Virus record (IMG/VR): IMGVR_UViG_2778261035_000005
Length of the DNA: 64,000 bases
Reading direction: 5' to 3' (one strand)
Source of the DNA: a virus
Lineage: Duplodnaviria; Heunggongvirae; Uroviricota; Caudoviricetes
Shown here: positions 13,921 through 64,000 of the stretch, piece after piece
Layout: every line of letters begins with the position of its first letter
Position numbering within the stretch: the first letter of the stretch is position 1
The notes under the pieces: generated by a model
What the model was told of the DNA's origin: nothing
Databases searched by the model: none
The model's input: the letters and a program-made list of their open reading frames with translations, nothing else
Position numbers and translations under genes: made by a program

Positions 13921-14018
13921 ACTGAAAATGAGTTACTTTTACTCTTGATCCTATAAGAATCTATGCCTAATATACTGTTTACTTATACAGTGCATCGGCG
14001 TAACTCGGTGATTGTCAT

Positions 14019-15122
14019 ATGAAAAATAGCTTTGACAGAGCACGCGCTGCGGAGAACACCTCAAAAGAGGCGATTGAGTATCTCGAAAGAGCATCTCAAA
14101 TGCAGGCCGTTATGATCTCCCAGGTCAGCAATGACATGAGATTCTCGGACGCATTCATGTTATTCACTCGCTTATCTCTGCTGATAACAAGACGTCGGCC
14201 AGAGATCGCTGTTCATTGTATTTTGATACATGTTTTGCCGCACATTGCCGATGTAAAAGTAAGTGATATTAATAGGTTCATGGTGAACCAACTGGTCAAC
14301 CCACTAATACTGGATGGCAAAATTGTTATGGGTCGCCGCGTTTTCTCTCTGATGAAGCAGTTCCTCAGCTGGTGCGCCTTCCAGGGGATGATCGACGTGT
14401 CACCGTTAAACGATATGTCACTTAACAAAGTTGCCGGTGGCGCAAAGCCCACACCTCGCGAGCGGAAGCTAACCGACGCAGAGGTATGGGTGTTCTGGAA
14501 TATATGGGACTACTTCAATGTGTGTGCTGGTACAAAATGGGCGGCCAGGCTATGTCTTGTATCCGCAAGACGACCTGACGAAGTACTGCGGGCTAAAAAA
14601 AGTGAGTTCAACCTCCAGCGTGGGGTTTGGAATCAAGGCAAGAGAAACAAATCAGCCCGTGAGCATTCTCTGCCTTTAAGCACATTAATGCGCACATGCA
14701 TTGAAGAGTTATTCGAATATGGTAAAGGCAGCCAGTGGCTTGTGCCTTCGAATAAAAAAATCGGGAAAGATCTTCCGATGTCTAAAGTGGCAATAGCCCA
14801 GGCATTACGCCGTATCCTGGAACGACCAGAACTGATGGAGCTTGAGCCATTTACACCACGAGATTTGCGTCGTACTGCGCGTAGTTACTTCCCAGCATTA
14901 GGCATAAGCCAGGAGGTATCACGTAAAATCATGAACCACAGTCTTGAGGGGATAGATCGGGTCTACGACCGGCACGATTATATGGACGAGATGCGAGACG
15001 CCTTAGAAAGTTTCTCGACGTACATCGCATCAATCGTAGAGCAACCGGATTTAGACGAAATTGACCACAAATTCAAGGGAGATCGTCTATCGACAGAGCT
15101 TATTCGTGTAAATTTTTCATAG
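14019..15122 (+). CDS. tyrosine site-specific recombinase (integrase/resolvase family)
   Basis: C-terminal catalytic region PRDLRRTARSYF...HSLEGIDRVYDRHD (R, HxxR, Tyr); N-terminal ~120 aa lacks an obvious arm-binding domain. Confidence 0.75.
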   Translation: MKNSFDRARAAENTSKEAIEYLERASQMQAVMISQVSNDMRFSDAFMLFTRLSLLITRRRPEIAVHCILIHVLPHIADVKVSDINRFMVNQLVNPLILDGKIVMGRRVFSLMKQFLSWCAFQGMIDVSPLNDMSLNKVAGGAKPTPRERKLTDAEVWVFWNIWDYFNVCAGTKWAARLCLVSARRPDEVLRAKKSEFNLQRGVWNQGKRNKSAREHSLPLSTLMRTCIEELFEYGKGSQWLVPSNKKIGKDLPMSKVAIAQALRRILERPELMELEPFTPRDLRRTARSYFPALGISQEVSRKIMNHSLEGIDRVYDRHDYMDEMRDALESFSTYIASIVEQPDLDEIDHKFKGDRLSTELIRVNFS

Positions 15123-60378: not shown

Positions 60379-60781
60379 TCAATACAATAAAATGGCCCCA
60401 TTTGGATGGGGCCGGTAACAACTAGCATTATGGGCGCTGGTTGACGTACTCAATGATCGCTTCGATGATTGCGAACATAGGCGGCACGATTTTGAAAAGT
60501 AAGTTAAGCACTATAGGCCTCACTTAGTTTTATCGCACCTAGCTGCAAATACCTTTGAGCTTGCCTTTGCAGTTGCAATATCTGTAGTCGCCAGATACTT
60601 ACGGCACGATTTCGAGTTAAGGTAAGGTTTTAGAGTCACCAAAAACCTGGACTTAAATCTTCTTTGAGAACAACGATGTTTGGTAAATGGTCATTATTAC
60701 CTAGCATGACGGCTCAACGTTTCTTGATGAATCCAGTACATTCGGTTAATCTTAGCTCAGTCGCCAGATACTTATGGCTCA

Positions 60782-60852
60782 GGAACAGAGGCGCAAACTC
60801 TGTTTCCTTTTAAAAAGCCCAGCCTAGTCAACTGGGCTTTTTAATGTCCGTT
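60782..60852 (+). terminator. tandem intrinsic terminators closing an ORF-free region
   Basis: ggaacagag-gcgcaaa-ctctgtttcc-tttt and agcccag-cctagtcaa-ctgggct-ttttt. Confidence 0.6.
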
Positions 60853-61137
60853 TTTAACCAAATGTACCCACAATACCGCAACATCAGTGTCTTGCGAATT
60901 AAGATAGGATTTATAGAGACTATGTGCAAGTGCATAACTTTGTGGATAACTCGTAAAGGAAAAAGTGGTTTCCGCGGACATTAGTTCAGACAAGGAGTCT
61001 GGGAAAGTCAATGGGAAGTAAAAATTTGTTAAAAATAACGTTTGTTGGAATTGTATATATTTATGCCTTTCAATAGTTAGCATCTTATTAACATCTTTTT
61101 TAAGAGATAGAGTTCAAAAATATATAGCTTCAACATA

Positions 61138-61157
61138 TACTGTATGCATATACAGTA
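61138..61157. promoter_or_regulatory. LexA (SOS) box
   Basis: TACTGTATGCATATACAGTA, perfect CTGT-N8-ACAG, 17 bp upstream of the umuD'-like ATG. Confidence 0.75.
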
Positions 61158-61173
61158 TTAAGAGGCGAGTATT

Positions 61174-61563
61174 ATGGGCTTCCCTTCTCCTGCGGCGGAT
61201 TATGCTGAGAGCCGTATTTCTCTTGATCAGCAGATAATTAGACATCCTTCAGCGACCTACTTCATGAGGGCAGCTGATAGTCATCATCGTGAGGGAATAT
61301 TACAGGGTGCATTGCTGGTGGTCGATTCCTCACTTACCCCGGTTGATGGTTCTCTGCTTGTATGCGCTCTGGATGGGGAATATCGCGTAAAAAGATACCG
61401 GAAGTATCCACGTCAGCATCTGGAGGATTTAAGAACCGGTAAGAAGGAAGCATTGCCAAAGGATGACGATGGATGCACGGGCAGCAATGCCGTGTTTGGT
61501 GTGATCACTCACATTATCAACGACGCAAGAAGTGGCGAGTTTGATGATTGTCCCGTGATGTAG
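61174..61563 (+). CDS. UmuD'-like protein (S24 peptidase fold, begins at the position of the UmuD cleavage site)
   Basis: GFPSPAADYAESRISLDQQIIRHPSATYF aligns to UmuD from the cleavage-site Gly; Ser and Lys catalytic positions present; LexA box upstream. Confidence 0.8.
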   Translation: MGFPSPAADYAESRISLDQQIIRHPSATYFMRAADSHHREGILQGALLVVDSSLTPVDGSLLVCALDGEYRVKRYRKYPRQHLEDLRTGKKEALPKDDDGCTGSNAVFGVITHIINDARSGEFDDCPVM

Positions 61564-61575
61564 GAGAACTGATTA

Positions 61576-61599
61576 GGCGGTGCAATGCACCGCCTTTTT
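61576..61599 (+). terminator. intrinsic terminator
   Basis: ggcggtgc-aat-gcaccgcc-ttttt; abuts the apbC stop codon. Confidence 0.6.
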
Positions 61600-61600
61600 A

Positions 61601-62701
61601 TCACACTGCGCGGAATGCGATTTCGCCAGGTATTACTTCACCTTGCCAATACATTTGGGCAGCAACGCGATCTGCGAGGTCACGATAAATAGCCGTAAAT
61701 TCGCTATCTGGACGACTAATAACGGTTGGTGTTCCGTTATCCAGATCTTCACGAAGAGAGATATGAAGTGGCATTTGGCCTAACAACTGCGTGTTGTATT
61801 TCTCGGCCAGTTTCTGTGCGCCACCGGTGCCAAAAATTGGCTCGTGATGACCGCAGTTACTGCAAATATGCACACTCATGTTTTCGACGATACCCAGTAC
61901 CGGCACTTCGACTTTTTCGAACATCACAATGCCTTTCTTCGCATCGATCAGCGCGATGTCTTGCGGCGTAGTTACCACAACCGCACCAGTTACAGGAATG
62001 TTCTGCGCCAGCGTCAACTGAATATCACCAGTGCCCGGCGGCATATCGAGAACGAGATAGTCCAGATCAGGCCACAGTGTTTCCTGCAACATCTGCATCA
62101 GCGCCTTGCTGGCCATCGGTCCACGCCACACCATTGCATTGTCGTCGGTGACCAGATAGCCAATTGAATTGGTTGCCAGGCCATGAGACATGATAGGTGC
62201 CATGTGAGTACCGTCCGGTGAGGTTGGACGTTGGTTTTCCGCGCCCAGCATGGTTGGAATTGATGGCCCGTAGATATCGGCATCCAGAATACCAACTTTC
62301 GCACCTTCAGCCGCCAGCGCCAGCGCCAGGTTTACCGCCGTGGAGGATTTACCCACGCCGCCTTTACCGGAGCTGACCGCAATGATGTTCTTCACGCCAT
62401 TAATGCCTGGTTGGTTTTTGACGCGCTTAAGCGTGGCAATGTTGTACGACAGCTTCCAGTCAATAGCCTTTGCGCCAGTGATACGGAGCAGATCACCACT
62501 ACATTGCTCTTTCAGGTCTTCAAAAGACTTATTCCACACGAAAGGCATGATTAGTTCGACATGCAGTGTGTCATCCATCAACGCAACATGGTGTAACGCT
62601 TTAAGCGTAGTCAGGTTGTGTTTCAGGGTTGGGTGCTGAAAATTAGCCAGCGTACCGGCTACCATTGCTCTCAGGGCATCCGGCGATTTGGACTCGCTCA
62701 T
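61601..62701 (-). CDS. apbC: iron-sulfur cluster carrier ATPase ApbC/Mrp (chromosomal)
   Basis: near-identical to enterobacterial Mrp as recalled: SSGKGGVGKSSTAVNLALALA, CSNCGHHEPIFG. Confidence 0.95.
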   Translation of the reverse strand: MSESKSPDALRAMVAGTLANFQHPTLKHNLTTLKALHHVALMDDTLHVELIMPFVWNKSFEDLKEQCSGDLLRITGAKAIDWKLSYNIATLKRVKNQPGINGVKNIIAVSSGKGGVGKSSTAVNLALALAAEGAKVGILDADIYGPSIPTMLGAENQRPTSPDGTHMAPIMSHGLATNSIGYLVTDDNAMVWRGPMASKALMQMLQETLWPDLDYLVLDMPPGTGDIQLTLAQNIPVTGAVVVTTPQDIALIDAKKGIVMFEKVEVPVLGIVENMSVHICSNCGHHEPIFGTGGAQKLAEKYNTQLLGQMPLHISLREDLDNGTPTVISRPDSEFTAIYRDLADRVAAQMYWQGEVIPGEIAFRAV

Positions 62702-62858
62702 CCCGTCTCCTTTATTTTAATTTGCGCAATTGTCGCCTTGTAGTGTACTCCAGCTACGACATTTAATCATTTATGAGAAATGCTGTTATCACATGGCAGA
62801 CATAAGGCCATTTTGTTACTATCAAGCCCCTTTTCACTACAAAGAAGTAATGCCTACT

Positions 62859-64000
62859 ATGACCCAAGTCGCGAAGAAAATTCTGGTGACGTGCGCGCTG
62901 CCGTACGCTAACGGCTCAATCCACCTCGGCCATATGCTGGAGCACATCCAGGCTGATGTCTGGGTTCGTTACCAGCGAATGCGCGGCCACGAGGTTAATT
63001 TCATCTGTGCCGACGATGCCCACGGCACACCGATCATGCTGAAAGCACAGCAGCTTGGTATCACACCGGAACAGATGATTGGCGAAATGAGTCAGGAACA
63101 CCAGACTGATTTTGCAGGCTTTAACATCAGCTATGACAACTATCACTCGACGCACAGCGAAGAGAACCGTCAGTTGTCCGAGCTTATCTATACTCGCCTG
63201 AAAGAGAACGGTTTTATTAAAAACCGCACCATCTCTCAGCTGTACGATCCGGAAAAAGGCATGTTCCTGCCGGACCGTTTTGTGAAAGGCACCTGCCCGA
63301 AATGTAAAGCACCGGATCAATACGGCGATAACTGTGAAGTCTGCGGCGCTACTTACAGCCCGACTGAACTGATCGAGCCGAAATCGGTAGTTTCTGGTGC
63401 TACGCCGGTAATGCGTGATTCCGAACACTTCTTCTTTGATCTGCCTTCTTTCAGCGAAATGTTGCAGGCATGGACCCGCAGCGGTGCGTTGCAGGAGCAG
63501 GTGGCAAACAAAATGCAGGAGTGGTTTGAATCTGGCCTGCAACAGTGGGATATCTCCCGCGATGCGCCGTACTTCGGTTTTGAAATTCCGAACGCACCGG
63601 GCAAATATTTCTACGTCTGGCTGGACGCGCCGATTGGCTACATGGGTTCCTTCAAGAATCTGTGCGACAAACGCGGCGACACTACCAGCTTCGACGAATA
63701 CTGGAAGAAAGACTCCACCGCCGAGCTGTACCACTTCATCGGTAAAGATATCGTTTACTTCCACAGCCTGTTCTGGCCTGCCATGCTGGAAGGCAGCAAT
63801 TTCCGCAAGCCGACCAACCTGTTTGTTCATGGCTATGTGACGGTGAACGGTGCGAAGATGTCCAAGTCTCGCGGCACCTTTATTAAAGCCAGCACCTGGC
63901 TGAATCATTTTGACGCTGACAGCCTGCGTTACTACTACACTGCGAAACTCTCTTCGCGCATTGATGATATCGATCTCAACCTGGAGGATTTCGTTCAGCG
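62859..64000 (+). CDS. metG: methionine--tRNA ligase, 5' portion (runs off window end)
   Basis: [44 protein letters not shown] (HIGH motif), zinc knuckle CPKC...CEVCG; no stop within window. Confidence 0.95.

Follow-up and report, generated by a model that had tools for sequence, protein, structure and literature searches.

The humD gene is a short rightward gene that lies near one end of the 64,000-nucleotide stretch of DNA analyzed here (hereafter, the window), and from its sequence the locus reads as a self-contained unit of promoter, operator, ribosome-binding site, 129-aa open reading frame (ORF) and terminator (Table 1).

Table 1. Features of the humD unit; positions are counted from the first letter of the window.
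Feature	Position	Strand	Details
Candidate sigma-70 promoter of humD	61113..61141	+	-35 TTCAAA 61113-61118, 17-nt spacer, -10 TATACT 61136-61141; consensus scan 9/12
LexA operator (SOS box)	61138-61157	.	TACTGTATGCATATACAGTA; unique in the window; aligns with the annotated P1 LexA site
Shine-Dalgarno sequence	61160..61165	+	AAGAGG, 8 nt 5' of the ATG; read from the sequence; adjoins the in-frame TAA at 61159-61161
humD coding sequence	61174..61563	+	129 aa, ATG start; Ser36 and Lys73 kept; C-terminal tail NDARSGEFDDCPVM at aa 116-129
Intrinsic terminator	61575..61600	+	GC-rich 9-bp stem AGGCGGTGC/GCACCGCCT, 3-nt loop, TTTTAT; terminator scan

The window corresponds to positions 42417-106416 of the Escherichia coli plasmid pWP4-S18-ESBL-07_2 (NZ_AP022089.1, 110,167 bp) at 99.99% identity, with only 6 mismatches in 64,000 nucleotides. 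This plasmid encodes virion-related functions, including terminase, portal, capsid, tape-measure and tail proteins, together with a RepB initiator, ParB, a DnaB-like helicase, primase, ligase, DnaE and RecA, as well as NrdAB, ThyA, DfrA51 and three tRNAs. By its gene content, the element is a siphovirus-type phage-plasmid of E. coli, approximately 110 kb in size and related to SSU5. The RepB proteins of PhiR41_1 and CMS-2020a, the nearest named phages, match that of the element at 99.8-100% identity, those of Klebsiella phage-plasmids at about 84% and the RepA of SSU5 at 48%; given this last figure, the exact label “SSU5-like” was dropped. The gene that faces humD is apbC (61601-62701, minus strand), which is convergent with humD and is followed by metG. 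This humD-apbC arrangement is found in 97 of 5,426 complete E. coli genomes, and PLSDB holds at least 149 plasmids with the protein at ≥99% identity and 460 with it at 90-95%. Within the segment from 61601 to 64000, the phage-plasmid has a copy of apbC (mrp) for a 366-aa Fe-S cluster carrier and, divergent from it, a metG for methionyl-tRNA synthetase; the two genes are divergent on the E. coli chromosome as well. Because the apbC portion of the query has 80-90% nucleotide identity to the chromosome in all 5,426 E. coli genomes, apbC-metG has the look of a host locus captured long ago. On the other side of humD, the approximately 760 bp 5' of the LexA box (60379-61137) carry no annotated gene and contain a terminator-like hairpin at 60821-60838. 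Within the 795-bp gap 5' of humD, an Rfam search for structured RNA gave sub-threshold matches only (RNAI at 21.6 bits against 47, E = 0.27), and an 80-aa minus-strand ORF (60841-61083) has no match in Pfam.

The operator is the sole match to a degenerate LexA pattern in the 64-kb window, where 100 shuffles gave an expectation of 0.00; the bare core CTGT-N8-ACAG occurs twice in the window against 0.78 expected. It has the anatomy of an SOS operator, being an AT-rich CTGT-N8-ACAG element that overlaps a candidate promoter. The initial annotation had described a perfect LexA box 17 bp upstream of the gene. Its position is borne out by direct reading of the sequence, as a gap of 16 nt separates the box from the ATG, which begins 17 nt past the last base of the box. 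The perfection, on the other hand, belongs to the two 8-nt arms (TACTGTAT and ATACAGTA) and not to the whole site, which agrees with the textbook 20-mer (TACTGTATATATATACAGTA) at 18/20 positions, the mismatches being two of the four central bases. The last four bases of the candidate -10 element are shared with the start of the box. Two promoter-like sites were found in the humD region against 3.2 expected in shuffles, and the candidate promoter is therefore a weak prediction. The intrinsic terminator picked up by the terminator scan lies 12 nt past the humD stop codon and directly before the 3' end of apbC. Elsewhere in the window, a second LexA-box-like site (TACTGTTTACTTATACAGTG, 13973-13992, within the region 13945-14021) matches the consensus at 16/20 positions with an exact CTGT-N8-ACAG core. 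It is located directly 3' of a strong sigma-70-like promoter (TTGATC-17-TAATAT, 13945-13973), and the gene for a tyrosine recombinase of 367 aa (Pfam Phage_integrase) begins 26 nt further on, with an ATG at 14019. The recombinase of the phage-plasmid may therefore also be under SOS control, though one extra core match lies within chance (0.78 per window).

The reading frame that leads into humD runs TAA GAG GCG AGT ATT ATG, such that the TAA at 61159-61161 closes the frame 12 nt upstream of the start codon, and no ATG, GTG or TTG intervenes between this stop and 61174. An N-terminally extended protein, the very circumstance under which the initial annotation would have withdrawn its proposal, is thereby ruled out. 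In the UmuD' crystal chain 1umu_A, Gly2 of HumD is matched by residue 1 (E = 7e-23), and in full-length E. coli UmuD (8gmt_B) by Gly25 (E = 7e-22). When the Cys24-Gly25 bond of UmuD is cut with the help of RecA, Gly25 becomes exposed and is consequently the first residue of UmuD'. By both the alignment and the closed frame, HumD is without the N-terminal arm and without the cleavage site, in keeping with the earlier claim of a 129-aa UmuD homologue that starts at the Gly of the Cys-Gly site.

Family models lead to the same protein. The NCBIfam equivalog NF051876 (HumD family; “HumD family translesion DNA polymerase”) scores 219.8 bits against a cutoff of 120 (E = 8e-66) and aligns end to end, with protein residues 1-129 on model positions 1-129/129. 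NF007621, which describes the UmuD subfamily (Pol V autoproteolytic subunit), reaches 87.0 bits and so falls short of its cutoff of 110, and the UmuD-type arm with its Cys/Ala-Gly self-cleavage site is missing from HumD. Pfam PF00717 (Peptidase_S24) is exceeded at 37.9 bits against a gathering score of 23.3, with the Ser-Lys dyad present. The LexA repressor model TIGR00498 scores 27.2 bits against 110.95, with only the C-terminal domain region matching; the name “LexA family transcriptional regulator” given to some HumD homologues is a mis-annotation. The best matches among solved structures are E. coli UmuD' (1UMU) and full-length UmuD (8GMT), and Ser36 and Lys73 of HumD align with the catalytic Ser60 and Lys97 of UmuD. 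An AlphaFold2 model built on 97 homologues had a mean pLDDT of 60.7, too low for a fold search, which was unnecessary in any case because the HumD sequence already matches solved UmuD'. Against phage genomes (tblastn), the protein is 100% identical to that of phage Cyrano and 99% to that of CMS-2020a, 91.5-93% identical to the HumD of P1, RCS47, SJ46 and D6, and 62-71% identical to N15 gp26, phiKO2 gp23 and the proteins of HK-type lambdoid phages. RefSeq records that are nearly identical (98.9%) name the same gene “HumD family translesion DNA polymerase” or “S24 family peptidase.” The window protein is thus best described, from its sequence, as a member of the HumD family and as a UmuD' analogue translated in the short form. 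The comparison with UmuD and P1 HumD that had been suggested as a check, with its Gly2/Gly25 match and its 91.5-93% identity to P1 HumD, together with the equivalog assignment, upholds the proposal of a UmuD' mimic analogous to P1 HumD. The analogy to P1 extends to the protein, which is of the HumD type, and not to its carrier, which is an SSU5-related phage-plasmid.

The gene itself is already known, as its family, pre-activated form, LexA site and missing umuC were described for P1 between 1999 and 2004. P1 HumD (AAQ14181.1) is likewise 129 aa long, with an MGFPSPAADY start and a C-terminal SGEFDDCPV tail; it too is carried by a plasmid prophage without a umuC partner, behind a homologous LexA box at a near-equal distance from the ATG. 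The P1 GenBank record notes a “LexA binding site in the regulatory region of lxr and humD,” 19 nt 5' of the start codon, and describes HumD as “DNA repair; functionally complements E. coli UmuD'.” In two published sources, P1 HumD is stated to replace UmuD' functionally (PMC7092418) and humD to be a LexA-regulated SOS gene (PMC9603915). The surroundings of the two genes differ, in that P1 has hot and lxr upstream and phd-doc downstream of humD, all of which are missing from the window element, where humD is instead convergent with a plasmid-borne apbC on a siphovirus-type phage-plasmid with a RepB initiator. The spacers of the boxes differ as well (ATAAATGA in P1, ATGCATAT in the window). DNA similarity between P1 and the window starts exactly at the LexA box and stops at the stop codon, at 84% identity. 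The only other shared DNA is a 124-bp patch (60925-61048, 72% identical), whose P1 counterpart lies just upstream of hot and contains a consensus DnaA box (TGTGGATAA, i.e., TTATCCACA) and the late promoter LPhot. This patch suggests that the humD unit of the window may derive from a P1-type hot-lxr-humD module from which hot and lxr were lost. A P1-like lxr divergent from humD was considered and rejected, since homology to P1 begins only at the box and the 80-aa minus-strand ORF noted above resembles no Pfam family.

Placed among its more distant relatives, HumD shares with E. coli UmuD' (PDB 1UMU, 1I4V), the Pol V subunit, the S24 fold region (aligned from Gly25 to the C-terminus), the positions of the Ser/Lys dyad and, as predicted for humD, a gene under LexA (SOS) control. 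UmuD' arises when a 139-aa precursor cleaves itself with the assistance of RecA*, whereas HumD is short from the moment of translation, and while umuD shares an operon with umuC, humD is solitary. HumD further differs from UmuD' by a 1-residue deletion before the Ser motif, by ADSH in place of GDSM, by a longer loop at approximately aa 96-104 and by a 13-aa C-terminal extension. The UmuD-like proteins of the HK-type lambdoid phages, N15 gp26 and phiKO2 gp23 are also HumD-family proteins of 127-129 aa, encoded as orphans on temperate phages and phage-plasmids, although they are more diverged. MucA, ImpA, RumA and the IncF umuD product (locus L005) are similarly SOS-linked S24 subunits for Y-family polymerases on mobile elements, and are about 39% identical to HumD. 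Unlike HumD, these plasmid and ICE homologues are precursors of about 145 aa with the arm and cleavage site, adjoin a gene of the umuC/mucB type and are without the EFDDCPV tail.

The box and the start of humD can be followed through the family. In each of 80 viral contigs whose proteins are 91-100% identical to that of the window, a CTGT-N8-ACAG element begins 34-37 nt 5' of the ATG. Its arms are almost invariant among these relatives, while the spacers vary (ATGCATAT, ATGTGTAT, ATGGATAA, ATAAATGA, ATGAATAA, ACAGATAA and others), which is the pattern to be expected if the operator is under selection. The cassette is followed in these contigs either by apbC, as in the window, or by phd-doc, as in P1, and hot or lxr is variably present upstream in both contexts; the humD unit has therefore been exchanged among phage-plasmid lineages. 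Across a wider sample of one genome per species, an exact box was found at 18/37 HumD loci, at -33 to -45 in 17 of the 18 and at the modal position of -35 in 12, and at another four loci the boxes were nearly exact, in tandem pairs at three of the four. At roughly 40% of the species-level loci the LexA box is missing and the gene directly adjoins a phage ORF on its 5' side (e.g., GGAGG...TGAnATG), and these genes look to be translationally coupled to that gene. SOS control thus seems to be common in the HumD family without being universal. As the species-level loci were retrieved with the patterns MGFPSPA[AS]D and [GS]EFDDCPV, they are unusable for rates of N-terminal or tail conservation. A k-mer/HMMER search that is independent of these patterns yielded 555 clusters at E ≤ 1e-10, and the majority of the 120 homologues listed from it have lengths of 126-130 aa, with 110 of the 120 beginning precisely with MGFPSP. 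Longer database calls (148-223 aa), which read through the translated LexA box or the upstream gene, look like start artefacts of gene callers.

The initial annotation saw no umuC partner in the window, and this conclusion can be extended to the whole element. When a plasmid UmuC (L005) was used as tblastn query in two parts, one N-terminal and one C-terminal, the best match to umuC in the window or anywhere on the 110-kb plasmid had E = 2.8, against 1e-72 and 0 for the L005 locus itself as positive control, and none of the 131 annotated features of the plasmid is a umuC gene. The element must therefore draw its catalytic subunit from the chromosome of its host or from another replicon, as reported for P1. 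The same solitude is seen across the family, as no umuC lies within 5 kb of any of the 37 tail-bearing HumD loci of the pattern-retrieved species-level sample (0/37). Four proteins with an MGFPSPA start and no tail, from metagenome-assembled genomes of Proteobacteria and Chitinophagaceae and from a Pseudomonas, do have umuC immediately downstream. Proteins of UmuD' length (115-117 aa) with umuC directly downstream occur outside the Enterobacterales at L053 (5001-5348), L054 (5001-5354), L051 and L065; L053 and L054 have an MGFPSPA start and no upstream in-frame start, while for L051 a start further upstream in frame is possible. These four loci look like operons of a pre-cleaved UmuD plus UmuC that would need no RecA-mediated activation. 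A separate case is the IncX3 plasmid pABC218-NDM, in which a 118-aa “S24 family peptidase” (L006, 2259-2857) is 48% identical to HumD and starts at the cleavage-site Gly. On IncX3 NDM plasmids this gene is flanked by IS26 and ISKox3 and preceded by an abutting 80-aa ORF, and it may represent a further orphan UmuD'-like gene on conjugative plasmids.

Considered together, these features make it very probable that the locus is a LexA-repressed, solitary humD that supplies a ready-made UmuD' for a Pol V-type enzyme formed together with the UmuC and RecA of the host. In an undamaged cell, host LexA would occupy the box over the -10 and start region and keep the gene silent. Upon DNA damage, RecA* would promote the self-cleavage of LexA and so release humD transcription, and the HumD thus produced, being born in the UmuD' form, would bypass the slow RecA*-dependent activation step. 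A HumD dimer could then join host-encoded UmuC and RecA in a translesion enzyme of the polymerase V type, by which damaged DNA, that of the element included, would be replicated at the cost of mutations. For the window protein, LexA control, dimerization, binding to UmuC and RecA and complementation of UmuD' are all expected by analogy to the 92%-identical HumD of P1. P1 HumD itself was reportedly poorly expressed, and is said to have complemented well only from a high-copy plasmid (attributed to McLenigan et al. in 1999, J Bacteriol 181:7005). Given this requirement for high copy number, the natural role of humD for the element is a presumed one.

The C-terminal tail introduces a complication. 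It conforms to NDARxGEFDDCPV[MIL] (61519-61560 in the window), and no other part of the HumD family is as strongly conserved as this 13-residue extension past the end of UmuD, which UmuD, MucA and their like do not have. Across 97 homologues of 67-98% identity, E122 and D124 never vary and F123, D125, C126, P127 and V128 are each conserved in at least 90%; even short, distant relatives of 105-109 aa retain an acidic-Pro-hydrophobic ending (DDDCPVM, DGDWPF, GGNAPF). In the genome sample, which is biased by the retrieval patterns, the tail is associated with the absence of a umuC neighbor. AlphaFold2 gives residues 1-23 and 119-129 a pLDDT below 50, which fits flexible ends within a model of low confidence overall. 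The tail (GEFDDCPVM, with the variants EFDDIPVI, EFDDTPF and DGDWPF) could conceivably be a flexible motif for capturing a partner, an idea that is correlative in its basis (tail conservation, umuC absence and low model confidence at aa 119-129) and that we hold to be rather doubtful. It appears to resemble the acidic tip of bacterial SSB (DFDDDIPF). A search for literature mentioning the SSB C-terminus together with UmuD found no link to HumD. If the tail does capture partners, orphan phage UmuD' proteins could dock on host UmuC or on SSB-interacting proteins of the replisome; HumD might then out-compete resident UmuD and UmuD', and would be a hijacking adaptor and more than a “pre-cut UmuD.”

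Such a tail raises the prospect of HumD as a modulator or decoy that binds host UmuC, UmuD, RecA filaments or parts of the replisome through it, and that tunes or blocks host SOS mutagenesis or imposes a replication checkpoint to the benefit of the element. In its favor are the near-invariance of EFDDCPV[MI] in a segment that UmuD' does not have, which hints at an extra or different partner, and the manner in which the tail tracks orphan status (0/37 tail-bearing loci with umuC, against the four tail-less proteins with umuC directly downstream). It is further in keeping with this possibility that the element has its own DnaE and RecA, and that humD in P1 adjoins hot, a homologue of the theta subunit of Pol III. 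However, the function on record for P1 HumD, complementation of UmuD', is a positive and not an inhibitory one, the core of HumD aligns end to end with UmuD', and no direct sign of another partner emerged in this analysis. We accordingly regard a modulator or decoy as unlikely, and favor the provision of ready-made UmuD' to host UmuC.

The protease dyad bears on a further alternative, in which HumD would act as an S24 serine peptidase in trans, with LexA, a phage repressor or the UmuD of the host as examples of substrates after damage. In favor of such an activity, the window copy keeps both Ser36 and Lys73 and passes the Pfam Peptidase_S24 cutoff, but its GDSM motif is degraded to ADSH and the dyad has decayed across the family. 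In the close set of 120 listed homologues, the Ser position is S in 75, T in 43 and A in 2. At the 37 species-level loci it is T in 21, S in 7, M and R in 3 each, P in 2 and Y in 1, and the Lys position is K in 22, R in 7, M in 4, L in 2 and W in 2. The local alignment around the dyad is clean (L007-L052), and the rest of the protein is conserved despite the loss of the dyad. As the dyad is not maintained, proteolysis is dispensable for HumD function, as expected of a protein with nothing to cleave, and the S24 fold has been kept for a non-proteolytic role. Nohmi et al., in 1988, are also said to have found that mutagenesis by UmuD' needs no catalytic serine. An active peptidase is consequently a highly improbable explanation of the locus.

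P1 and the window humD differ by 55 nucleotides and 11 amino acids, with dN/dS = 0.055 at dS = 0.77, and the gene is under strong purifying selection. That humD should be a decaying, 5'-truncated remnant of umuDC with a leftover operator, as the missing N-terminal 24 residues and umuC neighbor might suggest, is effectively refuted by this selection and by conservation in more than 550 homologues (110/120 of those listed beginning with MGFPSP), to which its own ATG, Shine-Dalgarno sequence and terminator and a curated equivalog model may be added, and we give the idea almost no credence.

The P1-type humD unit, from operator to stop codon, is thus common to different phage-plasmid lineages. Widespread phage-plasmids of E. 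coli would thereby bring with them a damage-inducible shortcut to the activation of error-prone polymerase V, which would matter for mutagenesis under stress and for how resistance evolves in their hosts. Modest but testable leads on the function of orphan UmuD' proteins come from the conserved tail and from the decayed protease dyad.
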